Assembly: GCA_944393665.1 (NCBI GenBank)
Contig: CALYAX010000007.1
Location: 13,937-77,936 of the forward strand
DNA length: 64,000 nucleotides
Source: an uncultured Alphaproteobacteria bacterium
GTDB lineage: Bacteria; Pseudomonadota; Alphaproteobacteria; RF32; CAG-239
Direction: 5' to 3'
The notes beneath the pieces are model-generated. The model was not told where the DNA came from, made no database searches, and worked only from the letters and a program-made list of their open reading frames with translations. The translations under genes were made by a program, and so were the position numbers. Positions 7,698 to 22,380 of this stretch are shown one piece after another. The first letter of the stretch is position 1. Each line of letters starts with the position of its first letter.

Positions 7698-7772
7698 GGT
7701 CCCATCGTCTAATGGTTAGGACACCACCCTTTCACGGTGGTAATATGGGTTCGAATCCCGTTGGGATCACCA
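7698..7772 (+). tRNA. tRNA-Glu (anticodon UUC)
   Basis: The cloverleaf can be drawn by hand. Acceptor stem GGTCCCA/TGGGATC, anticodon loop CTTTCAC, T-arm GGTTCGAATCC, and the 3' end ACCA is encoded. A terminator hairpin follows at 7781-7807. Confidence 0.85.
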
Positions 7773-7979
7773 ATCGCAATACCCTCAGTTTTTGAGGGTA
7801 TTTTTTTGTTTAAAGACCTGATGTAATCGTACGGTTTTCTAAGTGTATAAGAGATTTTGCGGTCTTGTAATTTCAAGTTCGAAAGTAAAAGGTGCAAAAT
7901 CTCTCTTTTTGTTTCTACTTTCGAACTCTGGAAGATTTGGTACGCATTATTACCCAAGGAAAGTATTGTGGCGACTGCG
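7767..7979. repeat. Direct repeat copy A (213 bp). It starts with the last 6 nt of tRNA-Glu (TCACCA) plus the tRNA terminator, and is about 90% identical to copy B.
   Basis: Visual alignment of 7767-7979 with 10590-10801, for example the shared 'gtttaaagacctgatgtaatcgtacggtt', 'cttgtaatttcaagtt[c/t]gaaagtaaaaggt', 'ctactttcgaactctggaagatttggtacgcattattacccaaggaaagtattgtggcgactgcg'. Confidence 0.8.
7781..7807 (+). terminator. Rho-independent terminator after tRNA-Glu
   Basis: 'ccctca gtttt tgaggg' followed by a T9 run. Confidence 0.6.
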
Positions 7980-8048
7980 TGTAGCGCGCAAAATGGTTCT
8001 GGATTTATTGCAAAATGGTTCTGGGTCGGTTTTAAAGTCTAGGTTTTT

Positions 8049-8150
8049 GTAAGAAGAAAGATGGATTTACATAACTGGGATTCCGATATATCCCGGTAAA
8101 TCTCGGTTAATCCCAGTTATCCAGAACTATCTTTCTTCTTACACTTTTCG
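8049..8150. repeat. Long imperfect palindrome (about 34-bp arms, about 30-nt centre) in an ORF-free AT-rich stretch
   Basis: Left arm 'gtaagaagaaagatggatttacataactgggatt'. The right arm's reverse complement is 'gtaagaagaaagatagttctggataactgggatt'. The central part 'ccgatatatcccggtaaatctcgg' is itself partly palindromic. Confidence 0.6.
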
Positions 8151-8533
8151 CCATTCTGATGTTTAGTTATGATTTCATTCTTAATACTGTTGGAGAATTT
8201 TGAAGCGTGCATAGAGTTTTTCTTAATATTTACATTGAATAGCTAAAAATGAACTTATTATATAGAATTATTGGCTATTAGCTGAAAAGCTTTACTAATA
8301 AAAGATTTTTCAGATCCATTTTTAGCATATATTGCTGTTTTATTAGTTTCTAGATTGCAATTATGAGTCTTATTTTAATTGGCCCTATATTGACAGCCTA
8401 AATCCTAAATTAAAAGTCATATTCTTAACCTTTCTAATATAAAAGGACATCAAAACGAATACATTTTTCATTAATTAATGTATGGGTTTCCATAATATAC
8501 AACTAGATAATGTTATCAAGAAAAATAAAATAA

Positions 8534-9073
8534 TTAGGTAATTAGCTTATTATAAACTTGTTCTAACAATAGAAAATATACAGATTGACATTTTTCTAAT
8601 TCGCTATCTTTTACAATAGTACCAGCGATAGGAATATCAATTTCAACGATAAAATAATTATCCAAATAACGAACAATATCTAAAAATTGATATAAATATT
8701 CCTTAGTTATAAATTCTTGGTCTGTTAGAAAAAAATCAAAAAAACTATGTGCACATATATTTCTTATTTTTCTAGCCTTTTCTATTATGTCAATTTGGTC
8801 GCTTTTCAAGCAATAGAACTCGAATCCATATTCAAATACACCACCACAACGACTACAATTATTTTTATATTTACTGCTTACCTTTTGGTAAGGCTTGCAA
8901 TTATCAATCAGTTCTATGCTGAAAAAATCTTTTAATTTCTCTGTCAGCATAATTTTTGAATATTCGTATAAAAGCATATGTAATGTTGAAAATATTATTT
9001 GTTCTTTTAATGTTGATGTATCTTCAGACAAGAGTTTCTCCAATTTTTCATTTATACTATCGTAGGTATGCAT
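8534..9073 (-). CDS. Hypothetical protein with a HEPN-like Rx4H motif (Abi_2/AbiD-like abortive-infection candidate)
   Basis: 'EKARKIRNICAHSF' matches the HEPN R-x4-6-H signature. The protein is 179 aa, AT-rich, and located on the island. Confidence 0.3.
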   Translation of the reverse strand: MHTYDSINEKLEKLLSEDTSTLKEQIIFSTLHMLLYEYSKIMLTEKLKDFFSIELIDNCKPYQKVSSKYKNNCSRCGGVFEYGFEFYCLKSDQIDIIEKARKIRNICAHSFFDFFLTDQEFITKEYLYQFLDIVRYLDNYFIVEIDIPIAGTIVKDSELEKCQSVYFLLLEQVYNKLIT

Positions 9074-9169
9074 GTGTTTCAGACCTTTTTACATATAATT
9101 AATTTAAGATATTGTATGTAGTTAATTCTGAGAATACAATATCTTTATTGTAATGATGAGGATTCTAAA

Positions 9170-9790
9170 ATGGATATTAAAGAAATACATGACCAGCAAA
9201 TGTTTCATAAAGAAAATTTAATAAATGTTGAAGAGAATCAACTTTTACAGCATGTAATGGATTTCGCTAAAATGGGACTAAAAGGGATTTTCATACTAAA
9301 TGGAACGGCAGCAATATCTCTATTAACCTTATTTACACACATCATTCTTATAGAAAAATATGATATTGCGCATGGAATTTTCTGGGCAACAATTACTTTT
9401 GCTGTTGGCGCAGCCCTATCTTCATTAAGTATCTTTCTGGCATGGTATGCCCAAGGAAAATTTCAAGATACGGCCTATTATGCTAATCTAATCGAAATTG
9501 CTCGGATTAGAACTTCTCATAGTAAGGACGATAAATTAGATTACATAAAGAAAATGCACATCAAAGAAATATCTATTGATGAAAAAAATGATAAGTTTTT
9601 TAAGAGCTTAAAAATATATCAGGAAGAAAATAATAAGTATATTGATGAACAAATGAAAAAGGAAAGCTCATCAAGGCTAAAAGGAAACTTTACTCAAGGA
9701 TTTGTTGTATTTATAATTTTTCTAGCATTCGCTGCATTCGTCTATGGCATCTTTCTTACTTATGATTCTTTAGAGTGTGTTATAAAATGA
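9170..9790 (+). CDS. Hypothetical membrane protein (2-3 TM helices)
   Basis: Hydrophobic segments 'GIFILNGTAAISLLTLFTHIILI', 'IFWATITFAVGAALSSLSIFLAWY' and 'FVVFIIFLAFAAFVYGIFL'. It overlaps the next ORF by 16 nt. Confidence 0.4.
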   Translation: MDIKEIHDQQMFHKENLINVEENQLLQHVMDFAKMGLKGIFILNGTAAISLLTLFTHIILIEKYDIAHGIFWATITFAVGAALSSLSIFLAWYAQGKFQDTAYYANLIEIARIRTSHSKDDKLDYIKKMHIKEISIDEKNDKFFKSLKIYQEENNKYIDEQMKKESSSRLKGNFTQGFVVFIIFLAFAAFVYGIFLTYDSLECVIK

Positions 9791-10470
9791 TTTATTCCAA
9801 TGCCGATATTAAATTTGAGAATAGATATAGTAGTATTTTCAAGGCCCAGATAGAAATTCATAAAAAAGGTTTGGGAGAAGCTTTTTACAATGAAAAATTT
9901 CAATATTATGAAAAAGTTTTATACAATACTGATGTTATATTTGATAAAATATCTTTACTGGAAAAAAAAGCATTTAATAAAAACTTATATAAACCTTTTA
10001 AATACATAAATATTAAAGGTTTGTATCATGTTCATCATTTTCAGCCACTCAATATGGCAAAAAATTGCAAAAAAATATTCAACGCAAAAGCTAAAAATTA
10101 TTCAATGAATGTTGAACAATATGAAGAGTGCATATTCAGTGTATTATATTTATATAATCGCATGATTAAGAATTTATCTGAAAATGAAGCATATGAAAAA
10201 GCTCTGGGTTATTTAACAAGAAATAGGATCGATGACTGTTATATTGAAGCGTGCGACAAAAAGATACTAACTGGAGATTGGCTTGTCTTATTGCGTAAGG
10301 ATGATGTAAATTACTATTTAACATTAGCTAGACATGAAGAACCTCAAGATATGATTTTCAAACGTGTATTTATAGCAATTGAAGAATTAATATTTGGTAG
10401 AAAGCATGGCTTTGATATTAAGAATGTTGAAGCGGTTAAAAAGCCCTTAGAAACGGAGCTTTGGGATTAA
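9775..10470 (+). CDS. Hypothetical protein (231 aa)
   Basis: Long ORF in the low-GC island, apparently translationally coupled to the preceding membrane protein. No recognisable motif. Confidence 0.35.
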   Translation: MCYKMIYSNADIKFENRYSSIFKAQIEIHKKGLGEAFYNEKFQYYEKVLYNTDVIFDKISLLEKKAFNKNLYKPFKYINIKGLYHVHHFQPLNMAKNCKKIFNAKAKNYSMNVEQYEECIFSVLYLYNRMIKNLSENEAYEKALGYLTRNRIDDCYIEACDKKILTGDWLVLLRKDDVNYYLTLARHEEPQDMIFKRVFIAIEELIFGRKHGFDIKNVEAVKKPLETELWD

Positions 10471-10589
10471 TATTTACTTAATAGTTAGGTATACCGAAAA
10501 AAGAGGTTCGAAATTTTATTGCAACCTACATTGCATTAATGAGACTTAAAAATGTATAAAATCGCATTAGTCCGTACAATTTATTCGGT

Positions 10590-10801
10590 TCACCAATCAC
10601 AACACCTTCCTTTTTGGAGGGTGTTTTTTGTTTAAAGACCTGATGTAATCGTACGGTTTCCTTAGGGTATACGAAATTTTACTGTCTTGTAATTTCAAGT
10701 TTGAAAGTAAAAGGTTCAAAATCTCTCTTTTGTTTTCTACTTTCGAACTCTGGAAGATTTGGTACGCATTATTACCCAAGGAAAGTATTGTGGCGACTGC
10801 G
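10590..10801. repeat. Direct repeat copy B (212 bp). It begins with a tRNA 3'-end-like TCACCAATCACAA and a degenerate terminator hairpin.
   Basis: See copy A. 'ttcaccaatcacaacaccttcctttttggagggtgttttttgtttaaagacctgatgtaatcgtacggtt...'. Confidence 0.8.
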
Positions 10802-10971
10802 ATTGAAAACTTTTCATCGGCTTTAGTCAACAGTTCCGACCTTCCTTCGAGTTTGTACTGTTCTTTTTTTATCTCCTCACTCATATCACGGTATTCTTCC
10901 GGCGTGATTTTCCTTTTATATAACAGTGACCATTGCAACTTGGTTTTTGACAAGATTTTTGTAGATAACAC
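10597..10971 (-). CDS. Repeat-associated hypothetical protein (124 aa). Its C-terminal 70 aa are encoded inside repeat B, and a truncated near-identical reading frame exists in repeat A.
   Basis: The ORF extends from unique sequence into the repeat. The copy-A frame (7709-7957) lacks the N-terminal 42 aa and runs into the tRNA, so it is likely non-functional. Confidence 0.3.
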   Translation of the reverse strand: MLSTKILSKTKLQWSLLYKRKITPEEYRDMSEEIKKEQYKLEGRSELLTKADEKFSIAVATILSLGNNAYQIFQSSKVENKREILNLLLSNLKLQDSKISYTLRKPYDYIRSLNKKHPPKRKVL

Positions 10972-11371
10972 AGCTTAGGTTTCTGATTTTAAAATTTCAA
11001 TCAATACAAAATTTTGGAGAACTTATAGATGTGATATAATAAAAAACTTAGATCGAGAAAATAATGAGGAAAGAATAATTGGTTATAATATAGTATTGCT
11101 TTGCACGATATCGTTTTTTTGCAAGCATATTATCCAATTATTAAGTTAATTTTATATTTCGAACTGGCTGAACTAATTAATAAAAGGTAAAATTTACTAT
11201 TCTTATGAAAGCCCTTTAACTTTATCGGGAAATAAACAAAAAATAAACAAAAAAGACATTTTCTATTTTTTATTCTTGAAAGTTAAAGAAACTTATTATA
11301 TATTATCATCGTATTAAATTAATTACAATGTAGATATTCTAAAAATGAAATAATTTAAAATTTTTATTGAG

Positions 11372-12577
11372 ATGGACAAAAGTGAAAAATTGGCACGGAT
11401 TGAAAAAATCCTGTCTCGTGGTGTAATTAAGAATATTATGCCATCTGAAGAAGAATTCAAAGCACGTTTGTTATCCGATGAGTCTATGCGTTTTTACATA
11501 GGTGCTGACCCAACTAGTAATTCATTACATTTGAGTCATGCAAAGAACTTCATGCTTTTAGAGGAGTTTAGGCAACTCGGGCATAAAGTTTTCGTTCTTT
11601 TCGGAGATTTAACCGCTTGTATCGGAGACCCTAGTGACCGGAATTCTGCTCGTGCAAGACTGACTAGAGAACAGGCTCGGAAAAATGTTGAAGATTGGGT
11701 TCGTCAAATTCGCCCCATAATTAACTTTGATGATCTTGAAAATCCTGCCGAAGTTGTTCTTAACAGTACGTGGTTTGATAAAATGTCAGTTACGAATTTA
11801 ATCGACCTGCTATCCAATTCCACAGTGCAAAGAATGCTTGAAAGGGATATGTTCCAGAAACGTCTCAGCGAGAACAGGCCTATCCATTTGCATGAGTTTA
11901 TCTACCCCATGTTTCAGGGATTTGATAGCGTCGCATTGGATGTAGATGTAGAAATTTGTGGTTTAGACCAGACATTTAATGCCCTTATGGGAAGAACTCT
12001 TGTCAAACGCTTTAAAGACAAGGAAAAGTTCGTTGTTTGTGTTAATTTGATGGAAAACCCTGTTACTGGTGAATTGATGTCAAAATCAAATGGTACAGGG
12101 GTTTTCCTTAACATTGATGCACAAACCATGTTCGGTCAAATCATGGCACTACCGGATGAAATGATTAAGCTTATTCTTATTAACAATACCCGCGTTTCTT
12201 TAGAAGAAATAGAGGCGTTGGATATTAAGAATCACCCTCGAGATGCTAAAATCTTTACAGCGACAGAAGTTGTCAGAATTTTCCATGGCCAAAAAGCAGC
12301 AAATAATGCGAAACAGACTTTTTTAGAGACATTCTCTAATAAGACGTTTCCCGCAGATGCTCCGGTTATTGAAATTGAGACCCCTGAAATTCAGGTGTTG
12401 GAACTTCTGAAAAAATGCAAAAATGAGTCGAATTCTGAATTGAGACGGCTTGTTAAGCAGGGTGCTGTAAGTGCTGATGGCAAAAAAATTACCGATGAAA
12501 CCTCAATTCTTGAGGTCAAACAAGAGCTTCAGCTCAAAGTTGGTAAACGAGGATTTTTCTTAATAAGAAGTAAGTAA
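11372..12577 (+). CDS. tyrS: Tyrosyl-tRNA synthetase paralog (class I; HIGH-like 'HLSH', KMSKS-like 'LMSKS', C-terminal S4 domain)
   Basis: 'FYIGADPTSNSLHLSHAKNFMLLEEFRQLGHKVFVLFGDLTACIGDPS' aligns with the E. coli TyrRS 'GFDPTADSLHLGHL...[22 protein letters not shown]'. 'ELMSKSNGTGVFL' corresponds to KFGKT/KMSKS. C-terminal 'LVKQGAVSADGKKITDE' is S4-like. Confidence 0.8.
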   Translation: MDKSEKLARIEKILSRGVIKNIMPSEEEFKARLLSDESMRFYIGADPTSNSLHLSHAKNFMLLEEFRQLGHKVFVLFGDLTACIGDPSDRNSARARLTREQARKNVEDWVRQIRPIINFDDLENPAEVVLNSTWFDKMSVTNLIDLLSNSTVQRMLERDMFQKRLSENRPIHLHEFIYPMFQGFDSVALDVDVEICGLDQTFNALMGRTLVKRFKDKEKFVVCVNLMENPVTGELMSKSNGTGVFLNIDAQTMFGQIMALPDEMIKLILINNTRVSLEEIEALDIKNHPRDAKIFTATEVVRIFHGQKAANNAKQTFLETFSNKTFPADAPVIEIETPEIQVLELLKKCKNESNSELRRLVKQGAVSADGKKITDETSILEVKQELQLKVGKRGFFLIRSK

Positions 12578-12590
12578 ATTATTCACTATA

Positions 12591-12633
12591 AAAGAAAAGG
12601 TTAGAGTTTTATTCTCTAGCCTTTTCTTTTTAT
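12591..12633 (+). terminator. Rho-independent terminator after the TyrRS-like gene (16-bp stem)
   Basis: 'aaagaaaaggttagag-ttttatt-ctctagccttttcttt' followed by a T-rich stretch. Confidence 0.6.
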
Positions 12634-12641
12634 AAAAAATA

Positions 12642-12670
12642 TTGACAAAATTTTAAAGAAGCTTATAAGT
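12642..12670 (+). promoter_or_regulatory. Putative sigma70 promoter (TTGACA, 16-17 nt, TATAAG) for the sulfotransferase-to-HAD operon
   Basis: 'aaaaatATTGACAaaattttaaagaagctTATAAGtt'. A nearly identical -35 context 'aaaaatattgacaa' recurs at 16337 upstream of the TrpRS-like gene. Confidence 0.4.
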
Positions 12671-12701
12671 TAATTATTCATTAAAAATTCAGGAGAGTAG
12701 T

Positions 12702-13586
12702 ATGGGAAAAGATATTATCCCTATTTTTGTATTAGGTACTCCTAGATCTGGAACTACTGTTATTGGAAAATATATTTCAACCCACAAAGATATCTTGGAC
12801 ATGGGAGAATATGCCGGTTTTGATTTTACTTATCGTGTTGCTCCCAATTTAATGAAAACATTACCGTCTACTTTTAAGGATGAGTATTTATTTAGTCTTC
12901 AAAATCATGCAACACAATTCGCTCACGAAATGGCAATAAAAAATAATTGCCATTATTTTTGTGATTCTACTCCATGGACATTATTAGCTATGGATAAAAT
13001 TAAAGACAAATTGCCCGGTGCAAAATTTGTTTTATGTATACGAGAACCTCAAGGTGTGATACAGAGCCTGGAACGCAGCTTCAAAAGCGGGAGGAAATGG
13101 GCCGGAGAAAATAATCAGGAGCGTTTTAGACTTTGGAAAGATTTTTATGAAAAAGTAAAATTTATTCCTCAAAAAGATCTAATGGTATTCAATTATAGTA
13201 ATTTCTGCAAAAAACCTGAGGAAGAACTCTCTCTATTAGATCAGCAGTTATTTGCGCATGGTATTACTCCAACTTCGCTAGATAAAACGATTTTTGCAGA
13301 AACTCATGCCACTGTTGTATCTGATCATCGGCCTGTTAGTGCCAGAGTTGATAATAACGGTCATATTACATTATTGGCACGGGAAGATTGGAACAATGAA
13401 AAATGGACCATTCAAGATGAAATGATGTTGCAAACTGACAATGGATATAAGGAAATTTTAAATTTTTTAAAGAATTTACCGTTAAAAAATAGTTTACACC
13501 CTGCTGTTATTTATAAAAATAAATATCTTTCTTCTTTAGCTCAAAATGTTAATATGGTAACAAATTTGAAAGATAATATTCGGTAA
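12702..13586 (+). CDS. PAPS-dependent sulfotransferase family protein
   Basis: N-terminal 5'-PSB-like P-loop 'VLGTPRSGTTVIGKYI'. Size and architecture are typical of the Sulfotransfer family. Confidence 0.5.
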   Translation: MGKDIIPIFVLGTPRSGTTVIGKYISTHKDILDMGEYAGFDFTYRVAPNLMKTLPSTFKDEYLFSLQNHATQFAHEMAIKNNCHYFCDSTPWTLLAMDKIKDKLPGAKFVLCIREPQGVIQSLERSFKSGRKWAGENNQERFRLWKDFYEKVKFIPQKDLMVFNYSNFCKKPEEELSLLDQQLFAHGITPTSLDKTIFAETHATVVSDHRPVSARVDNNGHITLLAREDWNNEKWTIQDEMMLQTDNGYKEILNFLKNLPLKNSLHPAVIYKNKYLSSLAQNVNMVTNLKDNIR

Positions 13587-13619
13587 AGAAAGTACATATA
13601 TTTAAGCTAGAGTTTAATT

Positions 13620-14690
13620 ATGAAAAATTATGAGCTACTACTGCACCATATTCAAAATGGTGTTGTGTTATCAAGATTAGAAATTTTTAATGCTTTGAAG
13701 ACATTGTACCATGAGACAGACAACCAGCAAGCAAAATTTTGCATGGGAATGATTCTTTATGGGTTATCCGTAAGAGTTCCTACGCCTGAAGAACTTTGGG
13801 GCTTAGTTGATTTTGTTGAATATCTAGAACCATCTCTCCTAAAAAATAAGAGAAAACTTCCAATTTGTGAACCTGTCATTGGTTTGGCGGGAAGTGGCAA
13901 AAAAGGTATAAAAACCTTTAATATATCAACTATCTCTGCAATTGTTGCAAGTGCGGCGGGGTGCTTTATTTCTAAAGCCGTATCCAAATCAGTTTCTTCT
14001 GTGACCGGCTCTTCTGATATATTAAGTGCTGCCGGAGTTAACATAGATATTTCATTTGAAAAAATGATAAAAATTTTTACAGAAACAGGGCTTGGTATTT
14101 TTCAAATCGAAAAGACCATTCCTAAATTTGACAATTTTTATGGTGGAATATTTTTAGTCCCTCATGCACTATCGTATGCGCTTGCTGCTATTGTTAACCC
14201 TATTTTATGTGATAGCATTATTTATGGTTTTGCTGGAAAAAATATTGAAATTTCCAGTAAAATTTTGCATCAGATAGGATTAAAAAAAGGTGTGGTTGTT
14301 TCATCAACAGATGATAAAGTCTTATATATTGATGAGCTCACTCCATTGCAATATAATAATATTTCTTATATTGAGACACAAAAAACCTCTAAAAATATTA
14401 ATCTAACAAACATATTTGGATGTAAAAGATGTTCTCCTGATGAATTGAAAAGCAGCATAGATATAAATGGTCAATTAGATATTTTTAATTTATGTCTTTC
14501 AGGAAAGGCATCTCAAGCTCAAAATAATGCTATTGCAATGAATACAGCTTTTATGATTACCGAAGCTGGGATTACAGACAATCTAAAAACAGCTTTTGAA
14601 ATGGCTCATGATATTATTATGTCGGGAAAGGCATTAAAACAATTTAATCATTTCAAAGAAATGGTCAATGATTTGGGAGAGGACAGATGA
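13620..14690 (+). CDS. Divergent anthranilate phosphoribosyltransferase (TrpD)/glycosyltransferase family 3 homolog with an altered PRPP-binding loop
   Basis: 'GLAGSGKKGIKTFNISTISAIVASAAGCFISKAVSKSVSSVTGSSDILSAAGVNIDI' compared with the E. coli TrpD '[54 protein letters not shown]'. GTGGDG and KHGNR are replaced, suggesting a changed substrate. Confidence 0.6.
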   Translation: MKNYELLLHHIQNGVVLSRLEIFNALKTLYHETDNQQAKFCMGMILYGLSVRVPTPEELWGLVDFVEYLEPSLLKNKRKLPICEPVIGLAGSGKKGIKTFNISTISAIVASAAGCFISKAVSKSVSSVTGSSDILSAAGVNIDISFEKMIKIFTETGLGIFQIEKTIPKFDNFYGGIFLVPHALSYALAAIVNPILCDSIIYGFAGKNIEISSKILHQIGLKKGVVVSSTDDKVLYIDELTPLQYNNISYIETQKTSKNINLTNIFGCKRCSPDELKSSIDINGQLDIFNLCLSGKASQAQNNAIAMNTAFMITEAGITDNLKTAFEMAHDIIMSGKALKQFNHFKEMVNDLGEDR

Positions 14691-15685
14691 ATAATAGTGT
14701 AATTCTATTTGATATAAAAAAGAATTGCTGGAAAGAATATTCTCGTCCTCTGCCAGAGTTAACTACCGACGAAAGCCTCGTTAAGGTAGAATTTGCCGGA
14801 TTGTGCGGCAGTGACATGCACAGAATAAAAGCACCTACAAGCCATGAAACTCAGGTTGTCATGGGACATGAAATAATTGGTACTGTTAAAAAATCTGATA
14901 AAGAAACATTAATAGGAAAGAAAGTCGTCATTAACCCAATTGCTAATTGTAGAAAATGCTCTTCTTGCAATGATGGCTTAACACAATTCTGTTCAAATAG
15001 TAGAAATATAGGAAAAAATATCGATGGAGCCTTTGCTAAATATTTAAAAGTTCCCAACAAAAGTCTGTATATTGTTCCAGCGAATTTTCAAGCTGAGTTG
15101 GGGGTTTTAGTTGATGGAGCGGCCGTGATCATAAATGGTATAAAAAAGCTGTCAAAAAAACCCCATTCTGTTTTAGTTATTGGGGATGGAACCGTTGGCT
15201 GCCTATCCATTGCGGTGTTGAAAGCCTTATATCCGGAAATAAAAATTTCGTTACGCGGGCATCATAATACTGATTATGTAAATCAAGTATATAGCACATC
15301 AGCCCCCCAAGAAAATGAAAAGTTTGATTTAACAATCGAAACTGTAGGACGTGCACAATCAGATACTTTAAACCAATGTGTTGAATATGCTTCTATTGGG
15401 GGTCAAATTTTAATAATGGGGGTTTATCCTCCTAACTTTTCTTTAGATTTTAATGCCAGAACCGCTTTTTATAAGGAATTAGCAATATATGGTGTTAATT
15501 CGTTTTGTGTTACAAAAAAAAGAGACGATTTTAGAGAAGCATTAGCTTTAATTGATTCCCATCCGGAGTTTTTTGCTCCATTAATCACTCACAAATTTTT
15601 ATTATCCGATTTCAATCTTGGTATTGCAAAAATGTTGGATAAAAGTAAAGAAGCTGTCATAAAAGTTATTTATACTACTGCTTAA
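14687..15685 (+). CDS. Zn-dependent medium-chain alcohol dehydrogenase (threonine/sorbitol dehydrogenase-like)
   Basis: 'GLCGSDMH', 'GHEIIGTV', the structural Zn Cys cluster 'CRKCSSCNDGLTQFC', and Rossmann 'VLVIGDGTVG'. A 4-nt ATGA overlap with the upstream gene. Confidence 0.75.
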   Translation: MNNSVILFDIKKNCWKEYSRPLPELTTDESLVKVEFAGLCGSDMHRIKAPTSHETQVVMGHEIIGTVKKSDKETLIGKKVVINPIANCRKCSSCNDGLTQFCSNSRNIGKNIDGAFAKYLKVPNKSLYIVPANFQAELGVLVDGAAVIINGIKKLSKKPHSVLVIGDGTVGCLSIAVLKALYPEIKISLRGHHNTDYVNQVYSTSAPQENEKFDLTIETVGRAQSDTLNQCVEYASIGGQILIMGVYPPNFSLDFNARTAFYKELAIYGVNSFCVTKKRDDFREALALIDSHPEFFAPLITHKFLLSDFNLGIAKMLDKSKEAVIKVIYTTA

Positions 15686-15692
15686 GGATTTC

Positions 15693-16310
15693 ATGAAAGA
15701 CATCAATATAAAAAATTATCAGCTTGTTTTATTGGACTGGGATGGTACATTAGTCAGAACTCGAGAGAATGTTATTTATGCAATGCAACCCGTTTCTCAA
15801 AAATATAGAAAACTAGACTGGTTTGAATTAGATAAAATTAGAAATCACAATTTATCTTTAGAAGACAATTTTGAAAATTTCTTTCATGAAAATAAAGATA
15901 TTGCATACGATTTATATCTAAAAACTTACATATCTGGTATAAAAAATAATGTGCATAAAATTACCGGTGCGGATAAATTACTTAAAATTCTAGATACCTT
16001 ATCCATAAAAAAAGCTATAGTTACCAGCAAAGACAGAATACTTTGGGAAATAGAAAAGAACACATTTAATACATCTTTTGATTTTTCTGTATGTAAAGAT
16101 GAATGTGATCACAATAAACCCCTGCCTGATCCAATACTTAAGGCAATAGCCCATTTTTCAATTTCCAAAAGTAACGTGTTGATGATTGGAGACAGCCGAC
16201 ACGATTATATAGCGGCTAAAAAAGCAAAAATCGATTCTATCATTATTGGAGAAGAAATATACGCTACTTTTGATAATTTAGACACACTAATAAAAAAAAT
16301 ATTCTTTTAG
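15693..16310 (+). CDS. HAD-superfamily hydrolase (phosphatase)
   Basis: Motif I 'LVLLDWDGTLV'. Motifs 'VTSK' and 'IGDSRHD' later in the protein. 8 nt after the ADH stop. Confidence 0.65.
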   Translation: MKDINIKNYQLVLLDWDGTLVRTRENVIYAMQPVSQKYRKLDWFELDKIRNHNLSLEDNFENFFHENKDIAYDLYLKTYISGIKNNVHKITGADKLLKILDTLSIKKAIVTSKDRILWEIEKNTFNTSFDFSVCKDECDHNKPLPDPILKAIAHFSISKSNVLMIGDSRHDYIAAKKAKIDSIIIGEEIYATFDNLDTLIKKIFF

Positions 16311-16349
16311 ACCCTTTAAACATCGAAAACTTATTTTAGCTAAAAAATA

Positions 16350-16392
16350 TTGACAATTTGACAAAATAAAATTAATGATTTACTAATAATAT
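16350..16392 (+). promoter_or_regulatory. Putative promoter upstream of the TrpRS-like gene (tandem TTGACA elements)
   Basis: 'aaaaatATTGACAatTTGACAaaataaaattaatgatttactaataat'. It shares the 14-mer 'aaaaatattgacaa' with the 12636 promoter. Confidence 0.3.
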
Positions 16393-16435
16393 TAGGTGCG
16401 AGAATAACAATTCGCTTTTAAACGGAACTAAAAAT

Positions 16436-17557
16436 ATGTCTAAAGATATTTCATCAAACTTAATCTTTAATGATGAATATTATAAAGAAGTCATTGATAA
16501 ATATGGCTACAATGCTTTTGATTTCAAACCTATTGATTTTGATATTTCTCATTTGGATAAAAAGGCACTCAATCAACGGTGGTTATGTCATTTTGATGGA
16601 GAACCTTTTTCTCAAGCAATAAATAATAAAGAAAAAGCAATCGTCACAACTGGAGTTGGATTATCCGGGGCTCCTCACATGGGAACAATTTCCCAAATGA
16701 TGCGTGCAATATTTTTACAGGAACAAGGATTTAATGTTCAATTCGTCTTGGGGGACTTAGATTCATATAATGCTCGCTCTCAACCATATCCTGTTGTAAA
16801 AGCCAGGGCTGAACAATATAAAGAATTCATTACCAACCTTGGCTTTTCAAAGGAAAAAGGAATTTTACGCTCACAAGATAATAATCCTGAAGTCTGCAGA
16901 ACGGCTTATTTGATTTCTCGATGCCTGACAGATGAAGATTTCCTTAATGCAGAAGAAGACTTATCGGAATTATATCAAAAACAAGGTGCTTATCCAGGTA
17001 TTAAATATCCGGTTAAACAGGCTATCAATCTAATGGTGGCTGATTTTATTCATCTTGGAATGGCAGATAAGAATAAAAGTGTTATGGTAATGCTTGGTTT
17101 GGAAGAACATCTCTATGTCAGAATTGCAAAGGATGTTATAAAAAGGATGGAAATGCCTTTTCATCTCGGAGCAATGTATTCCAAAATTATTAAAGGCTTC
17201 AATGGTTTTCCTAAAATGAGTAAAAGTATTCCCGGATCCTCAATAAACGTTGATATGAATATTGATCAAATAAGACATAAACTTCAACATGAAGAAGGGC
17301 ATTACAGCAAACCTGATGATTCTGTTGCCTATCAAATGATGTGTGCTGTCTCAAATTATACCCCTAGAGATCTAAATATTCTTCACGAAAAATGTTCTGT
17401 CGGCGGTCGGTATTGGAGTGCGGCAAAAGATGAATATGCAGAATATCTTGACTCTATTTTTAAAAAATGGCCTAAGGATAAGGTATTCGATCGGAGTGCA
17501 ACTATGAATCCTATAGATATGTTTATTATGAAAAATGGCTGCGGCAGAAAACTCTAA
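16436..17557 (+). CDS. trpS: Tryptophanyl-tRNA synthetase paralog (class I, KMSKS present)
   Basis: 'TGVGLSGAPHMGTISQMM' resembles the TrpRS 'GxQPSGELHLGNY'. 'GLEEHLYVRIAKDV' resembles 'GEDQKQHLELSRDIA'. Exact 'FPKMSKSIPGS'. Confidence 0.7.
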   Translation: MSKDISSNLIFNDEYYKEVIDKYGYNAFDFKPIDFDISHLDKKALNQRWLCHFDGEPFSQAINNKEKAIVTTGVGLSGAPHMGTISQMMRAIFLQEQGFNVQFVLGDLDSYNARSQPYPVVKARAEQYKEFITNLGFSKEKGILRSQDNNPEVCRTAYLISRCLTDEDFLNAEEDLSELYQKQGAYPGIKYPVKQAINLMVADFIHLGMADKNKSVMVMLGLEEHLYVRIAKDVIKRMEMPFHLGAMYSKIIKGFNGFPKMSKSIPGSSINVDMNIDQIRHKLQHEEGHYSKPDDSVAYQMMCAVSNYTPRDLNILHEKCSVGGRYWSAAKDEYAEYLDSIFKKWPKDKVFDRSATMNPIDMFIMKNGCGRKL

Positions 17558-17958
17558 AATTTAATTTTAGCCAAGACTTCATCACTATTATATTCTTTTT
17601 TTTCAAGCTTAGGCCATGTATCTAACCCATCATTGTCAAAACGAGGGAAAATATGGATATGAAAATGGAATACTGACTGCTGAGCAGATTTACCGCTGGC
17701 ATGTAATATATTAATACCTGTAGCACCTAACCGTTCTTTTAAATGCAAACTAATTTTTTTTGCAAACTTGATAATATGAGTAAGCTCTTCTTCTGGAATA
17801 TCAAAAATATTTTCATAATGCTTATTAGGAACGATAAGCAAATGACCATAGACCTCCATTTTTCTGGGTAGAAAACAAGATAAGATATTATCTTGATAAA
17901 TTATTTTTCCCGGAAGTTCTTTGGCACAAATCTTACAAAATACACACTCCATGAGCAA
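17554..17958 (-). CDS. HIT-family (histidine triad) nucleotide phosphoramidase/hydrolase
   Basis: N-terminal 'CVFCKI' and the histidine triad 'HFHIHIFPR'. It is convergent with the TrpRS-like gene, sharing 4 nt with it. Confidence 0.75.
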   Translation of the reverse strand: MLMECVFCKICAKELPGKIIYQDNILSCFLPRKMEVYGHLLIVPNKHYENIFDIPEEELTHIIKFAKKISLHLKERLGATGINILHASGKSAQQSVFHFHIHIFPRFDNDGLDTWPKLEKKEYNSDEVLAKIKF

Positions 17959-18706
17959 CTCCTTATTGGAAAATTATATTATTTGTAGCTTAATATAATA
18001 AAAAATATATGTCAAACAGGTAGTTAATGAGTAAACTATATAAAAAATACCAATCCAAGTTAAATTTACTGGAATTTTCAATACAAATTATTTCAAAAGA
18101 AAATAAAAAAAGATTTTTGAAGGATATAATTATATCGCTAATGTTGCTTTAGATGAATTTCCTCGGATATCTTTTCAACAAGGCAGTACTTTGATGACAC
18201 CGCATATTCACGGAATATTTTCATAGTTGTCAAAACGGATTTGTGTGGAAATATATTCTTTTATAATACTCTCAGGTAGCATTTTTTTATCCTTATCTAA
18301 AATTTTAATTTTCATAAAATTTAGAGCGACCGAAATTTTAAGGTACAAAAAAGCATCTTAAAACTTCAAACAAAAGTCCTAAGACGCTAGTTTTGGTCCG
18401 GATATTTTTTTAACAGACTTTACGCTAAGCACTAGCAACGCACGAGAGTCCCGAGGAAGAGCCCTCGGAAAATTCCAGGCACCTTGTTTCCAAGATACAA
18501 GGTTATTGTGCCTTATTTTTGTAAAATTATCAAGTTTATATTTGTTGTGATTAAAACTTATAGTTTTTTGTTTGTTGGATTGTCAGAGAATGAGGAACTT
18601 TAATTTTTCAGTACGAATTTATCGTTTTTTCGAAACAACACACCAGACATCAAGAAAACGAGTTTTTTGTTGCTTCAAAAAAATTACTGATATTTGTTAC
18701 ATTGAG

Positions 18707-19825
18707 CTAAAAAGGAAGTTCATCATAGATTTGTTTAGCTTCTAAATATTCTGTTTGTATATTGCTAATAAATGTTTCACCAAATGTTTCTACGAGCTGA
18801 TTTAATACATTGAATTTTCCATATTGCTCATGTAATTTATAAAGCGTCGAATACGGGTATTTATCAATATTTAAATTTTTTATACTTGAGATGAATAGGC
18901 TAGACATAGTATCATTCATAAAAATATCTGTTAGACTAGAGGAAAATGATAGATTTAGTGAATAAATTTTATAATACTCTTTATGGTCAATATATTCAAA
19001 AATATATTGCATATATAAGGGCAATAAATCATTATTATTTTTAATTTCGTAGCATTCCATATTTTTGTTGTCGCACCAGTCTTTCAAGCTTGTTAATAAT
19101 ATTTTATTAATGCGTTTTTGAGAGAGTTTAGATATATCTTTCCAGTGTTCATTTCTTAAAATATATATTAGCAGAGCAATTTCTTTTAAATTGTTAGATT
19201 TTTCTAGTTTTGTATCAGCACTTTTAATATAAATGTATTGTTCATTTTGAGGGAGACTATTAAATATTTTATATGTAAAATTAAATACATTAGGATTGAT
19301 ACTATCATCACATAAAGAAATTAATGTATCTAATAATTTTTTTTCTGGAATTCTATTTAGAATTTCATTTATATATTCTTCATCGTCGACATAATATAAA
19401 TCATTAAGTTTTTGATGAATATCATTTATAGAATAAAAAGCTTCTCCTTTTATAAGTGCGGCTAGCGCATAATTAATCATTATTAGCTGTAAATCACAGA
19501 CCTCTTTAGACGGGGTTATAATATTGTGGTGAACTGGATTTCTGTACATATAATATAAACTACAAATGTAGCTCATCATTCCTTGTTGGATATTTTTATC
19601 TGTTTCCGTTTTTAGTGGGTTCATTTTTATTAAAGGTTTGTTTAGTGAAAATGCTTCTTGAACTAGTTTAGCTCCATCTTTGTCTAATCCAGACTTTTCA
19701 CGCAATTTATTGGTTAAATAAAGCATTGCATTGCTTAATACGTCTCGGTAGTTTTCTATTTCATAATTTTTTTTTATGAAATTATATAAATCATTATCAA
19801 TATTAATTTCCGGCCTGAATTTCAT
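18707..19825 (-). CDS. Hypothetical protein (372 aa), very AT-rich
   Basis: Long ORF with no recognisable catalytic motif. Confidence 0.35.
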   Translation of the reverse strand: MKFRPEINIDNDLYNFIKKNYEIENYRDVLSNAMLYLTNKLREKSGLDKDGAKLVQEAFSLNKPLIKMNPLKTETDKNIQQGMMSYICSLYYMYRNPVHHNIITPSKEVCDLQLIMINYALAALIKGEAFYSINDIHQKLNDLYYVDDEEYINEILNRIPEKKLLDTLISLCDDSINPNVFNFTYKIFNSLPQNEQYIYIKSADTKLEKSNNLKEIALLIYILRNEHWKDISKLSQKRINKILLTSLKDWCDNKNMECYEIKNNNDLLPLYMQYIFEYIDHKEYYKIYSLNLSFSSSLTDIFMNDTMSSLFISSIKNLNIDKYPYSTLYKLHEQYGKFNVLNQLVETFGETFISNIQTEYLEAKQIYDELPF

Positions 19826-19847
19826 TATTTTTTCCTAATTGGATACA

Positions 19848-20204
19848 TTATTTGCTATTCCACCATGCTAAAGCAGCTAATCCGGCTAATGAGATAGATT
19901 GAATTATATTTCCTAAGATAGATTCCTTTGCTCTATAATTATATTTAATAGTTTTTAAAATGCTATCTGTCCCGATTAATGCACAAATGAAAATTATACC
20001 CATAAAAATAAATGGAGGCATTATCTGTTTTATATTTTCTTTGTTTTGATATAAAGAAATCATATCTAAACAATAAGATATAAGCCATATAACAATTAAC
20101 CAAATAACAGCTAAAATGATTGTGGCTGATACTTTTGAAATGTTGTTTGCTAAAAGATTAGTTTCTGTTTTAGGTTCTTGTTCTGTCTTTGTTTCTATGT
20201 CCAC
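19848..20204 (-). CDS. Small hypothetical membrane protein (3 TM)
   Basis: 'ATIILAVIWLIVIWLISY', 'FIFMGIIFICALIG', 'IIQSISLAGLAALAWW'. Confidence 0.35.
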   Translation of the reverse strand: MDIETKTEQEPKTETNLLANNISKVSATIILAVIWLIVIWLISYCLDMISLYQNKENIKQIMPPFIFMGIIFICALIGTDSILKTIKYNYRAKESILGNIIQSISLAGLAALAWWNSK

Positions 20205-20700
20205 TAGAGATATCCTTTCAATTTTTTTAATCTATATTACACCACTTTGACTTACAAGATAAAATGTAATTATATTTTTTTATCTTTGGGATAAATATTA
20301 GAGTTAATAAAATGGTGATGAATGATATATCAAATTAATTTTCTATAATTTCTTGATATTTGTGATTATTTTGTAAAAATGTCTTAGCTAATCGGTATGT
20401 GTACATAGTTGCCTTGTAATATTCAGGAGTAAATAATAGTTCGAAATTCGTTGCGAAACTGTCACCAATGCAAACGGCGGCCTACAAAATGGCTGCTTTT
20501 TCTTTATTTTCCAAAGCTTTCAGCGAGTTCGAGTGTTTGATTTTCAAAAATTGCGTTTGGGGAAGTTTTTCTGAACTTTGGCGCTAAGGTTTCTTTGTTT
20601 TTCAATGGATTAATTGATTTGTTTGGTTTTGAGATTCTGGGATATTTAAAACTTGTCAATTAAAATAATTTATTGTTTAATTTCATTATAGGAGATTACA

Positions 20701-21177
20701 ATGATGAAAATAAGGGTTCCTTTGGCAAAAGATGTTCCTGCAATCACAGAAGTAATTCAATCAGCATATAAAGTTTGTTATCGTGGATATGTGCCTGATG
20801 AATATTTGAATAATTTATGTATTACTGCAGATATTTTACAAAAATGGCATGATTATTTACAAAAATATGAATGCTATGTGGCAGAAAAAAATAAACAGAT
20901 TGTAGCATTTCTAATGGCAATGGAAGATAACTCAGATACTTTTGAAATTGGGGTATTATACGTAAAACCAGAGTACCAAAAAATGGGAATAGGCACTTTA
21001 TTAGTTGATTATTTGTGTAAAATAAAGAAAAAAAACGATTATAAAACCTGCAAAGTTTGGACCATAAAAAATGGTCCTTCAGTTGGTTTTTATAATAAGG
21101 TAGGATTTACAATTACAAAATATGAAAAACCTTGGAAATTTGACATTCCAATTATAATGATGTTAAAAATTTTATAA
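20701..21177 (+). CDS. GNAT-family N-acetyltransferase
   Basis: Motif A-like 'YVKPEYQKMGIGTLLVDYL', 158 aa. It is flanked by short intergenic repeats. Confidence 0.55.
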   Translation: MMKIRVPLAKDVPAITEVIQSAYKVCYRGYVPDEYLNNLCITADILQKWHDYLQKYECYVAEKNKQIVAFLMAMEDNSDTFEIGVLYVKPEYQKMGIGTLLVDYLCKIKKKNDYKTCKVWTIKNGPSVGFYNKVGFTITKYEKPWKFDIPIIMMLKIL

Positions 21178-21393
21178 AAGCTCGTAAACTGTGAGTTAAG
21201 AAGCACCAATACAAACAGTACTCTTTTCAGGGCGCTGTTTTGCTTTTGTAATCAGGGCTTTCAGCGAGTTCGAAAGTTGTAAATACAAAAATTGCATTTT
21301 TGGAAATTTTACGAGCTCACCTTGACAAAATTACAATAAAATCAAGCACTAAACTATACATTTGAGTATTTTTATTGACAAAAAAATATAGAT

Positions 21394-22380
21394 ATGACAC
21401 ATTATACTTATGGTATGGCTCTTTTATCTGGAGATAAAATTATGCTTTCAGAAGAACAAATGATGTTGCTCATTAATAAGCATAAACCGAATAACTATTT
21501 AACATGTTCTCCGGAAGAAGCTTTTCAGATGACGGAGTATGTTAAAGATAAAATTTCAAAAAGTGAAGTTCGTGAAGTTTATGACCTTTTGGAGATTATA
21601 GAAAAGTGTTCTCCTCCTGACCATGATGATTTTGAATTGATTAAACATTACAACGAATTATATGCAGATATTAATATTACCAAATATCCTTCTTACCAAG
21701 GAAAAAATTTGAAATATGGTTGCAATATAAAAAATTTTTATGATGCTAATCAATATATGAATGATGAGAATAGCGTTTCCCGTTGTGTATCAATTTTTAA
21801 TCGAATTGCCGATCCATCAAAAGGTCTTCCAAACAAAGCTTTGTTTGATTTATCTCGGAAATGTGATATCACCTTCAAGATAATTTCAGGGACAAATTTT
21901 GATGGCGAATGCCGTTATATCCAGCCTGAGGAAAAATCAAAACCGGCCATTGCGGTCGTTATCACTCAAAAAGCTCTTGAGGCTTCAGATGACTCTTTGG
22001 CCGTTCTTTTAGGACATGAATTGTCACACGCTATTGATATTAATCGACGGCCATTTGGTTATAATGGCAGCATCGGATGGGAAGCCCCTGAAGATTTTGC
22101 AAACATTGTAGGTTCTCAGATTGCTCAAAATGCAGGATACGATCCTAGAGAATTTATCAAAAGTCAGGGAGTGGAAAATGAAAAAACACAAAGGGCTGCC
22201 GAAATGATTTTAAAATACTCCTTAGATCCGTTTCGATTAAAATGCAGCAGATTACACGAAAAAATAAAAAATAAGAGTGGTGAAACAGCACATGTTGAAA
22301 CAGATAAAGCCGAGGAAAAGAAAACACAAGTGAATATTTCACAATTGATAATGAAACGAAAAAAAAGGTTCAGGGGATAA
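21394..22380 (+). CDS. Hypothetical protein with an HExxH zinc-metallopeptidase motif
   Basis: 'LLGHELSHAID'. An acidic/Lys-rich C-terminal tail. No signal peptide. Confidence 0.35.
   Translation: MTHYTYGMALLSGDKIMLSEEQMMLLINKHKPNNYLTCSPEEAFQMTEYVKDKISKSEVREVYDLLEIIEKCSPPDHDDFELIKHYNELYADINITKYPSYQGKNLKYGCNIKNFYDANQYMNDENSVSRCVSIFNRIADPSKGLPNKALFDLSRKCDITFKIISGTNFDGECRYIQPEEKSKPAIAVVITQKALEASDDSLAVLLGHELSHAIDINRRPFGYNGSIGWEAPEDFANIVGSQIAQNAGYDPREFIKSQGVENEKTQRAAEMILKYSLDPFRLKCSRLHEKIKNKSGETAHVETDKAEEKKTQVNISQLIMKRKKRFRG

Follow-up and report, generated by a model that had tools for sequence, protein, structure and literature searches.

A 64,000-nt stretch of contig CALYAX010000007.1 (GenBank assembly GCA_944393665.1, positions 13,937 to 77,936), from an uncultured Alphaproteobacteria bacterium of the RF32 lineage (CAG-239), contains a compact cluster of seven genes with aminoacyl-tRNA synthetase homologs. 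The whole 64-kb stretch is called the window here, and the cluster at positions 11372–17958 is called the cassette; codes beginning with W, L and P refer to the window, the compared loci and proteins, respectively. On the forward strand the cassette carries a tyrosyl-tRNA synthetase (TyrRS; 11372–12577), a PAPS-type (3′-phosphoadenosine 5′-phosphosulfate) sulfotransferase (12702–13586), a TrpD-like transferase of the Glycos_transf_3 fold (13620–14690), a Zn-dependent medium-chain dehydrogenase similar to Tdh and polyol dehydrogenases (14687–15685), a HAD-IA phosphatase (15693–16310) and a class Ic adenylate-forming enzyme similar to tryptophanyl-tRNA synthetase (TrpRS-like; 16436–17557). A Hint-type HIT hydrolase gene (17554–17958) lies on the reverse strand. 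All seven open reading frames, the convergent HIT gene included, were found at the coordinates given in an earlier note made from the sequence alone, and Pfam and NCBIfam agree with its domain assignments. Four of these genes, those of the TrpRS-like enzyme, the TrpD-like transferase, the Zn-dependent dehydrogenase and the phosphatase, form a core that is co-inherited and horizontally mobile.

The short or overlapping junctions of an operon-like arrangement are present as first described. The TrpD-like and dehydrogenase genes share a 4-nt ATGA overlap (14687–14690), the dehydrogenase and phosphatase genes are 7 nt apart (15685/15693), and 33 nt separate the sulfotransferase from the TrpD-like gene (13586/13620). 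Two wider gaps measure about 124 nt each; the HIT gene converges on the TrpRS-like gene with a 4-nt overlap. The earlier note had also proposed shared promoter-like elements. These are unsupported, since the 38 sites counted equal the level of shuffled sequence (37.4 ± 6.0). Its view that the genes lie outside core-like sequence holds: the cassette has a G+C content of 33.6% against 48.6% and 46.7% in the two flanks, and thus appears as foreign DNA inside a host of about 47–49% G+C.

The TrpRS-like protein is the signature core enzyme of the cassette. It had been taken as a TrpRS homolog with intact catalytic motifs; the KMSKS sequence is indeed exact, but the HIGH motif reads P-H-M-G-T and all trpS cutoffs were failed. 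The PF00579 score is just 44.3 bits. TIGR00233 gives 54.0 against a cutoff of 176.75, the best model, archaeal-type NF008925, gives 76.8 against 451, and the protein falls below every trpS and tyrS cutoff in NCBIfam. Family signatures are G-x-G-x-S-G-x-P-H-x-G, GDLDxYN and PKMSKS (PHMGT, GDLDSYN and PKMSKS in the window protein). PKMSKS is invariant, and at least 90% of members have Thr at the position of the second His of HIGH. A profile built from the family hits archaeal TrpRS (7e-13) and archaeal TyrRS (about 1e-10). An AlphaFold2 (AF2) model (mean predicted local distance difference test, pLDDT, 82) shows a full-length class Ic Rossmann fold with a C-terminal helical domain, and a Foldseek search with the model gives template modelling (TM) scores of 0.65–0.72 to archaeal and eukaryotic TrpRS at 13–19% identity.

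When the TrpRS-like protein is placed on the Methanocaldococcus jannaschii TyrRS (a reference sequence that served for residue numbering only), the Asp ligand of the side-chain hydroxyl (D203) and Tyr151 (Y186) are kept, while Tyr32 is changed to Thr, Gln155 to Met and Gln173 to Glu. The predicted pocket is of the aromatic type, but enlarged. In an exhaustive hidden Markov model search of 1.84 billion representative sequences, 336 clusters reached E ≤ 1e-3 and 119 of these reached E ≤ 1e-30; thus the family is small and discrete. Pfam and NCBIfam showed no match of the TrpRS-like protein to the GluQRS/YadB, MshC or cyclodipeptide synthase (CDPS) families, and no family members were found on phage genomes or viral contigs. 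From these family comparisons the protein is classed as a deep branch of class Ic and a conserved core enzyme of the cassette, not as a TrpRS. The proposal that it is a second or resistance copy of TrpRS fails on the same grounds, and on its fusion to TrpD-like or HAD partners in other genomes. Public annotations of the TrpRS-like and TrpD-like proteins read "hypothetical", "tryptophanyl-tRNA synthetase" or "anthranilate phosphoribosyltransferase".

Two further proteins, P0376 (911 aa) and P0414 (885 aa), are fusions in which about 570 aa of conserved sequence precede the TrpRS-like part. This N-terminal region contains the sequence LLDDNIMSGMT, which resembles the phosphoribosyl pyrophosphate (PRPP) loop of type I phosphoribosyltransferases and may place the region among them. 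The 570 aa give no Pfam or PDB sequence match, and the AF2 model is unusable (pLDDT 34). A 329-aa class Ic protein in locus L090 was considered as a possible family member and was rejected (hhalign probability 62%).

The second core gene, the TrpD-like transferase, scores 111.8 bits with PF00591 and 138.5 bits with TIGR01245, under the cutoff of 199.05. It aligns to solved anthranilate phosphoribosyltransferases, and YbiB-type structures are absent from the matches at E ≤ 1e-3. The altered PRPP/anthranilate-binding loop reported earlier is confirmed and is a family trait. The GTGGD loop, strictly conserved in TrpD (PMC9835598, the source of the motif roles used here), is invariably GSGKK in 63 family members, so that two lysines have been gained in the PRPP loop. 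The KHGN motif reads K-A-V-S, and the His, Asn and Arg residues that contact anthranilate are gone from the family. The invariant residues are G91-S-G-K-K95, N101, S103 and K119. At least 90% of members keep the S126-S127..G130-S131.D133 loop and the D238-E239 pair. Because this Ser loop and the Asp-Glu site are retained, the protein is inferred to use PRPP still.

The dehydrogenase, also a core gene, carries ADH_N (73.6 bits) and ADH_zinc_N domains and lies under all NCBIfam equivalog cutoffs, the best being Tdh with 127 against 458; among solved chains, 4ej6 and L-threonine dehydrogenases come nearest. The phosphatase (HAD_2, 105.8 bits) represents a step of the core that is always found nearby, but the protein family varies: HAD_2 in the window, HAD in Streptomyces, Hydrolase_3 in L076 and His_Phos_1 in L083. 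It appears therefore that the step matters rather than the particular protein.

The sulfotransferase (PF13469, 62.8 bits) displays PAPS-binding motifs and is a tailoring enzyme particular to this variant of the cassette. Its nearest solved chains are protein-tyrosine sulfotransferases, a weak similarity (E = 6e-5) confined to the PAPS-binding half. A homolog with 35% identity is found in L020. The cassette at L076/L077 has a Sulfotransfer_1 gene that is not orthologous to that of the window; thus sulfotransferases have been recruited into cassettes at least twice independently, and most of the compared cassettes have none. The HIT hydrolase (PF01230, 77.7 bits, Hint-like; 132 aa long with a start at 17952 according to other gene callers) is a recurrent accessory gene. 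HIT genes adjoin the cassettes in the window, L006, L021, L067, L070 and L083–85.

TyrRS is predicted to be the only true synthetase among the cassette genes. It is a full-length type 2 enzyme that scores 312.9 bits with TIGR00234 against a cutoff of 113.8, and the solved TyrRS structures 6bqy (E = 6.5e-63) and 6byq (E = 2.2e-57) match it. The S4-like C-terminal domain PF22421 gives 25.0 bits, below the gathering threshold of 27, but the 6byq alignment spans positions 31–397 and extends into the C-terminal domain. The earlier note had pointed to the HLSH and LMSKS motifs; the gene is a genuine tyrS, but these motifs replace HIGH and KMSKS across the whole subtype, including a chromosomal Prosthecochloris enzyme of 65% identity. 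They are therefore uninformative on resistance, and the idea that they mark a resistant enzyme was rejected. The Tyr-AMP pocket is canonical. Y34, D78, Y169, Q173, D176 and Q195 are intact, and K230 is changed to L as throughout the clade (Bacillus stearothermophilus TyrRS numbering, from a reference sequence used for numbering only and checked against known positions). No second tyrS and no other second class Ic gene were found in the 64-kb window. MAGs in NCBI/ENA carry a TyrRS (P0121) with 100% identity to that of the window.

A comparison set of 70 loci from named genomes, with the window excluded, was recovered with the TrpRS-like protein, and the neighboring open reading frames were clustered. 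The TrpRS-like open reading frame is found in 69/70 loci, the TrpD-like gene in 62/70 and the dehydrogenase in 61/70; a TyrRS-family gene lies within about 8 kb of the core in 59/70. Loci that lack one of these genes are mostly incomplete contigs. About 45 of the taxa are Streptomyces, Kitasatospora and Streptacidiphilus species. The others include Jiangella, Micromonosporaceae, Clostridia, Bacilli, Alphaproteobacteria, Acidobacteria, Myxococcota, Thermodesulfobacteriota, Patescibacteria, Aenigmatarchaeota, Lactobacillus iners and Olsenella, and gut and rumen bacteria are represented. The four-gene core operon is also present in Woesebacteria and in a DPANN-type archaeon. In such candidate phyla radiation (CPR) and DPANN genomes the cassettes sit among translation genes (GluRS, AspRS, CCA-adding enzyme).

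Across loci, the pairwise identities of one component correlate with those of the others, with Spearman coefficients of 0.86–0.94 for all loci and 0.49–0.57 (p ≤ 6e-4) after thinning of the actinobacteria. The TrpRS-like and TrpD-like genes overlap by 4–13 nt in six loci, and by an apparent 32 and 67 nt in two others. Fusions are also found: P0434, P0463 and P0436 are TrpD-like::TrpRS-like proteins and P0110 is a HAD::TrpRS-like protein. The gene overlaps and the fusion proteins indicate that the TrpRS-like, TrpD-like and phosphatase activities act together.

Genes that surround the core differ between genomes. Streptomyces cassettes carry a radical S-adenosylmethionine (SAM) enzyme, a SAM methyltransferase, a protein of unknown function and a GT2 glycosyltransferase. 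In Clostridium beijerinckii (L081) there are an ATP-binding cassette (ABC) transporter, a GT4 glycosyltransferase, a TyrRS paralog and a transposase. L079 shows three radical SAM enzymes, a protein of the purine nucleoside phosphorylase (PNP) family and a short-chain dehydrogenase/reductase (SDR), and L083 an APH-type kinase together with HIT. At L076/L077 the six-gene set of the window is reordered (sulfotransferase, TrpRS-like, TrpD-like, dehydrogenase, HAD, TyrRS) and followed by a second tyrS. The cassette of L. iners DSM 13335 (L070) consists of TetR, HIT, a major facilitator superfamily (MFS) transporter, the core and a nonribosomal peptide synthetase (NRPS) adenylation-thiolation-condensation (A-T-C) module; it has no TyrRS. 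Gene spacing in Olsenella (L073) suggests a similar NRPS arrangement. The closest solved A domain to that of L. iners is module 2 of LgrA, the linear gramicidin synthase (E = 5e-117). These variable tailoring and export genes make a context that is characteristic of small-molecule pathways rather than tRNA modification, and the small-molecule appearance that the earlier note saw in the window extends to related cassettes, with their transporters, NRPS, glycosyltransferases and radical SAM enzymes. That note also held that the same gene set, conserved as a non-biosynthetic operon in unrelated genomes, would speak against it. The set is conserved, but its contexts are accessory or biosynthetic (transporters, NRPS, IS elements) and not housekeeping.

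As to the L. iners NRPS itself, it is a single module of 1019 aa (12074–15133) situated between the TrpD-like and dehydrogenase genes, with TetR, HIT and MFS upstream. Its A-domain code, hand-read at the Stachelhaus positions, is tentatively about DVSCLACVYK.

Plasmid pBMB172 of Bacillus thuringiensis C15 carries the most revealing example. A recombinase precedes a 6.4-kb operon (NZ_CP021438.1, 110240–116636) of TrpRS-like, TrpD-like, dehydrogenase, HAD, MFS transporter and tyrS genes, which is followed by IS4, and IS6 copies lie further out. The TrpRS-like and TrpD-like genes are annotated "hypothetical protein". On pBMB172, tyrS is clearly a supernumerary copy and shares its operon with an exporter. 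Extra TyrRS genes are also present as tandem tyrS pairs in L008, L012 and L076, Bacilli metagenome-assembled genomes (MAGs) among them. Thus one part of the self-resistance proposal for TyrRS is borne out, in that a linked extra copy recurs, but the pocket of the window enzyme is canonical.

All cassette TyrRS genes tested exceed the tyrS cutoff, with scores of 263–400 bits. The largest group, termed here the Met-type clade, comprises 48–50 of the 68 TyrRS-family open reading frames around the cassette. In this clade Gln173, a ligand of the alpha-amino group, is changed to Met, and the universal motif Y-x3-Q-x2-D reads Y-x3-M-x2-D. Hosts are Actinobacteria, Clostridia, Acidobacteria, Myxococcota and unclassified MAGs, and three cassettes examined separately also carry this type (L083, C. 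beijerinckii L081 and the DPANN archaeon L094). Met-type proteins are often 440–500 aa long with an N-terminal extension of 40–90 aa, give tyrS scores of 263–272 bits, and show co-inheritance with the core (Spearman 0.94 for all loci, 0.49 thinned). Canonical Gln-type LMSKS enzymes are found in the window and in the loci closest to it (L006 and L021, along with L069 and L017); a KQSKS subtype is found on the B. thuringiensis plasmid and in L013, L063, L067 and L068; and the tandem copies in L008, L012 and L076 are type 1 with KMGKT. Since cassettes carry several TyrRS subtypes, the link of a TyrRS to the core is a robust one that does not depend on subtype.

Examples of Met-type genes are L023 13765–15240, L083 8621–9970, L081 15919–17247 and L094 5401–6690 on the reverse strand, with about 45 other loci. 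The archaeal member (L094) displays degenerate HIGH and KMSKS motifs as well.

Of 27 loci scanned, two, from unrelated genomes, have a tRNA-Tyr(GTA) gene next to the cassette TyrRS: 24 nt downstream in L012 (10389–10472) and about 100 nt upstream in L018 (8417–8499). Near the Aenigmatarchaeota cassette, ARAGORN also predicts an unusual tRNA-like gene whose "anticodon" has 2 nt (L014 14934–15018, reverse strand).

The LMSKS subtype is seen in other gene neighborhoods too. L088 (4838–15031) has two TyrRS genes, one of the LMSKS type and one canonical type 2, with GNAT, HAD, amidohydrolase, a pyridoxal phosphate-dependent decarboxylase and a carbamoyltransferase, and phage-like genes adjoin this accessory cluster. 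The mobile element in L090 (4435–14140) contains a large serine recombinase, HNH, a ParB-methyltransferase, an LMSKS-type TyrRS, thymidylate kinase, a radical SAM protein, a bacterial-type TrpRS (329 aa) and a Fic protein. In L086 an LMSKS-type TyrRS is found with Abi_alpha, GNAT, NUDIX and a phosphodiesterase.

In the window, the cassette is part of a low-G+C genomic island (7773–23800, 27–34% G+C in the composition profile) that also holds defense-like genes and genes of unknown function. A tRNA-Glu(UUC) gene (7698–7772, forward strand; ARAGORN, Rfam tRNA score 64.6 bits) marks the left edge. Directly downstream of it the G+C fraction drops from about 0.49 to about 0.29, and the island ends near 23.8 kb. 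The host flanks code for LexA, LysRS, a polysaccharide deacetylase, hydrolases and an autotransporter. The last of these is a 900-aa protein with Chlamydia-type polymorphic membrane protein repeats (26120–28822, reverse strand), in DNA of host G+C just right of the island. No att-type repeat of the tRNA-Glu 3′ end is found elsewhere in the window. A search with the flanking LexA for strains without the island matched only short contigs or contigs with the island. Neither the flank nor the cassette had a megablast match in E. coli genomes, so E. coli is not the host. A permissive Rfam scan of 7–25 kb found the tRNA alone and no T-box, riboswitch or leader RNA; a match to HrrF small RNA at 12508–12627, over the TyrRS stop codon and the following 124-nt gap, scored 36.5 bits against a gathering threshold of 77 (E = 0.003) and was dismissed as probably due to chance.

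A direct repeat of 191 nt with 92% identity (7789–7979 and 10611–10801) brackets a 2.8-kb segment just downstream of the tRNA, an arrangement that resembles a nested insertion. Three open reading frames of unknown function lie between the copies (8534–9073 on the reverse strand, 9170–9790 and 9775–10470). A further open reading frame overlapped by the repeat (10597–10971, reverse strand) was considered as a recombinase remnant, which Pfam does not support. The non-coding DNA after the tRNA also displays a 35-nt inverted repeat, 86% complementary, with a 26-nt spacer (8048–8082/8109–8143). Defense-like genes occupy the right half of the island (18707–19825, reverse; 20701–21177, forward; 22709–23695, reverse), where PADLOC matches a Hypoth_Ymh protein to PD-Lambda-3_B and an Mrr-type nuclease to the candidate system PDC-S02 (296 bits). 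A GNAT acetyltransferase is also present there, and GNATs adjoin the same TyrRS subtype in L088 and L086.

The region is read here as a horizontally acquired copy of a widespread, mobile small-molecule biosynthetic cassette; for this general model, with its proposed mechanism, we estimate a probability of about 0.5. The aaRS-like core and the usual presence of a spare TyrRS suggest that the product is probably tied to tyrosine charging. In the proposed pathway, the TrpD-like protein would transfer a phosphoribosyl group to an acceptor other than anthranilate, the phosphatase would strip the 5′-phosphate, and the dehydrogenase would perform a redox step on the sugar or a side chain. The TrpRS-like enzyme would adenylate an aromatic, Tyr-like amino acid and then esterify or amidate the ribosyl scaffold. 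It is proposed as an aromatic ligase because KMSKS, the first His of HIGH and the hydroxyl-binding Asp are kept; the natural acceptor of class I synthetases is the cis-diol of ribose. The product would be an aminoacyl-ribosyl compound resembling Tyr-AMP or the 3′ end of Tyr-tRNA, to which the PAPS-dependent sulfotransferase of the window variant would add a sulfate. The HIT hydrolase would trim a nucleotide-linked intermediate or detoxify an adenylate-like species. The linked extra TyrRS would sustain tyrosine charging in the producer, i.e. act as immunity, or would supply activated tyrosine; within the general model, immunity is somewhat preferred over supply.

A more pointed version is possible, though we consider it doubtful. 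The core would be a two-enzyme machine: a small ribosyl acceptor, made by a PRPP-type transferase, would be aminoacylated by a class Ic synthetase paralog in the manner of a tRNA end. The compound formed would be a natural mimic of Tyr-AMP or Tyr-tRNA, and the co-traveling TyrRS genes, including the Gln173-to-Met clade, would be immunity or partner enzymes. That the chemistry of the cassette is new in kind is likewise a doubtful suggestion.

Several observations weigh against the biosynthetic reading or against immunity as the role of TyrRS. The chemical steps are deduced from family membership. The TrpD-like loop is GSGKK in place of GTGGD, and TrpD2 proteins without GTGGD bind DNA, not PRPP (PMC9835598), so that PRPP use is uncertain. 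No transporter is found in the window cassette. The cassette is present in tiny CPR and DPANN genomes, and such genomes seldom hold secondary-metabolite pathways. As to immunity, the window TyrRS shows no active-site change that would mark an insensitive target, i.e. the divergent active site that is the hallmark of classical target-based immunity is absent, and the tandem TyrRS copies are identical at all 24 active-site positions examined. The tRNA-Tyr genes adjoining the cassette TyrRS in two loci favor a tRNA-dependent role over immunity.

Such a role defines the strongest of the other explanations, which is nevertheless unlikely: tRNA-dependent biosynthesis, in which the linked TyrRS supplies Tyr-tRNA or Tyr-AMP and the TrpRS-like and TrpD-like enzymes use activated tyrosine or process a tyrosine derivative. 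The valanimycin cluster reportedly has its own seryl-tRNA synthetase (VlmL) as a supplier. Besides the tRNA-Tyr genes of L012 and L018, the NRPS A-T-C module of the TyrRS-less L. iners cassette could be a non-orthologous means of amino-acid activation and carriage, and the Gln173-to-Met change suggests a specialized substrate more than a merely insensitive housekeeping enzyme; the pockets of the window TyrRS and the tandem pairs are canonical. However, the conserved core has no known aminoacyl-tRNA-using transferase fold (Fem/GNAT-type, CDPS or LanB-like), a housekeeping TyrRS would already provide Tyr-tRNA, and just 2 of 27 loci have the tRNA gene. Improbable in a greater degree is a translation- or tRNA-centered system with no secreted metabolite. 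Here the TrpD-like protein would bind or ribosylate RNA, e.g. tRNA-Tyr, and the TrpRS-like protein would add an amino acid, as GluQRS does on queuosine, or load a tRNA with a non-standard amino acid that the remaining enzymes produce, while TyrRS would be the partner for the modified tRNA. The location of CPR and DPANN cassettes among translation genes is consistent with this, as are the full-length class Ic fold with C-terminal helical domain predicted by the TrpRS-like model, the two lysines in the PRPP loop together with nucleic acid binding by TrpD2 relatives that have no GTGGD, and the adjoining tRNA-Tyr genes. The patchy accessory distribution (islands, plasmid, IS-flanked copies) and the variable tailoring and export genes (MFS, ABC, NRPS, glycosyltransferases, sulfotransferases, kinases) argue against it, and the scan of the window gave no RNA element.

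The remaining explanations are all judged quite improbable, in slightly decreasing order. Both synthetase homologs could be target-replacement resistance genes against a Tyr- or Trp-AMP mimic, e.g. a sulfamoyl nucleoside, made by the other genes. An extra TyrRS beside biosynthetic genes matches the pattern of known inhibitor clusters, and a sulfotransferase, a phosphatase and a HIT hydrolase are at hand. But the presumed TrpRS fails TIGR00233 (54 against 176.75) and has no second His in its HIGH motif, it is the best conserved of the core genes and is fused to TrpD-like or HAD, and it occurs in cassettes that have no other biosynthetic ligase. The window TyrRS, for its part, has no distinguishing active-site substitution, and sulfamate or sulfate chemistry cannot be the core of the cassette because most cassettes have no sulfotransferase. 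A more ordinary explanation, that TyrRS is the (xenologous) housekeeping enzyme of the host and stands by chance beside an unrelated metabolic operon, agrees with its canonical sequence, with its 65% identity to chromosomal TyrRS of other bacteria and with the lack of another tyrS in the 64-kb window. It does not agree with linkage of TyrRS genes of any subtype to the same four-gene core in 59/70 loci from many phyla, with the extra copies demonstrable on a plasmid and in tandem pairs, or with the 33.6% G+C of the whole block in a host of about 47–49%. Least probable is an anti-phage defense or counter-defense module on a defense island. Island neighbors match the PD-Lambda-3_B and PDC-S02 models, and the same TyrRS subtype lies by Abi_alpha (L086) and in a recombinase/ParB-methylase element (L090), but no core protein matches PADLOC (HIT alone gives a generic ThsC match), the TrpRS-like family was not found on phage genomes or viral contigs, and many cassettes lie in non-defense contexts. 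Overall, the interpretation of the earlier note is partly supported.

The biosynthetic cassette can be set beside several known systems. Self-resistance clusters with an extra aaRS reportedly include mupirocin/IleRS, indolmycin/TrpRS, borrelidin/ThrRS, albomycin/SerRS and agrocin 84/LeuRS, the last of them treated in PMC5059758. As in these, an extra full-length aaRS is linked to biosynthetic genes on mobile DNA (the B. thuringiensis plasmid, the tandem pairs), and linkage with co-inheritance is seen, a TyrRS-family gene being present in 59/70 loci. Unlike in these, the pocket of the window TyrRS is canonical, the TyrRS subtype varies, and most cassettes carry the Gln173-to-Met form. The searchable literature describes no natural TyrRS-inhibitor cluster.

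A synthetase paralog and a PRPP-type transferase side by side, and sometimes fused, recall HisZ-HisG. The HisZ/ATP phosphoribosyltransferase pairing is cited by PMC9835598 (its reference 19). HisZ, however, is a class II, HisRS-like, catalytically inactive regulatory subunit, whereas the cassette paralog belongs to class Ic and has preserved adenylate-site residues and an invariant KMSKS; its partner transferase adopts the TrpD fold rather than that of HisG. By analogy, the role proposed for the TrpRS-like enzyme would resemble GluQRS/YadB, MshC and CDPS, in which a class I catalytic domain is recruited to non-translational ligation. CDPSs have a TyrRS/TrpRS-like fold, but the TrpRS-like protein is full-length with a C-terminal helical domain and a retained KMSKS. 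It also differs from GluQRS, MshC and CDPS in being accompanied by its own scaffold-building enzymes.

The TrpD-like transferase shares the Glycos_transf_3 fold with TrpD and YbiB/TrpD2, and like TrpD keeps the beta2-alpha6 Ser-Ser loop and the Asp-Glu metal site. It departs from TrpD in having GSGKK for GTGGD, in the loss of the anthranilate contacts and in a score below the trpD equivalog cutoff. With its dehydrogenase, phosphatase, amino-acid ligase, methyl- or sulfotransferases and, in some loci, a purine nucleoside phosphorylase, the cassette enzyme set resembles in its logic the aminoacyl-nucleoside pathways to puromycin and to the sulfamoyl-adenosines ascamycin and nucleocidin. It differs in that no enzyme is orthologous to those of the known pathways, an aminotransferase is missing from the core, an aaRS paralog serves as the putative ligase and the sulfotransferase is optional. 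The cassette is a member of none of the compared systems; it is read as a biosynthetic cluster with synthetase paralogs.

Neither the cassette nor a TyrRS-linked cluster, the biosynthesis of SB-219383 or pBMB172 is described in the searchable literature. The cassette defines two protein families that are now "hypothetical" or mis-annotated as trpS and trpD. The Met-type clade poses the question of the role of a TyrRS that has no Gln as one of its alpha-amino ligands. For natural-product discovery, the 6.4-kb plasmid operon from a cultured strain is a directly expressible handle. If the inference holds, a compact pathway of five to seven genes would combine new enzymology (a synthetase paralog with a TrpD-fold transferase), horizontal spread over very distant lineages and a link to TyrRS, an essential drug target. 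Should the more pointed two-enzyme version be true, the cassettes would form the first known family of gene clusters devoted to a natural tyrosine-charging inhibitor, common to bacteria, CPR bacteria and DPANN archaea.

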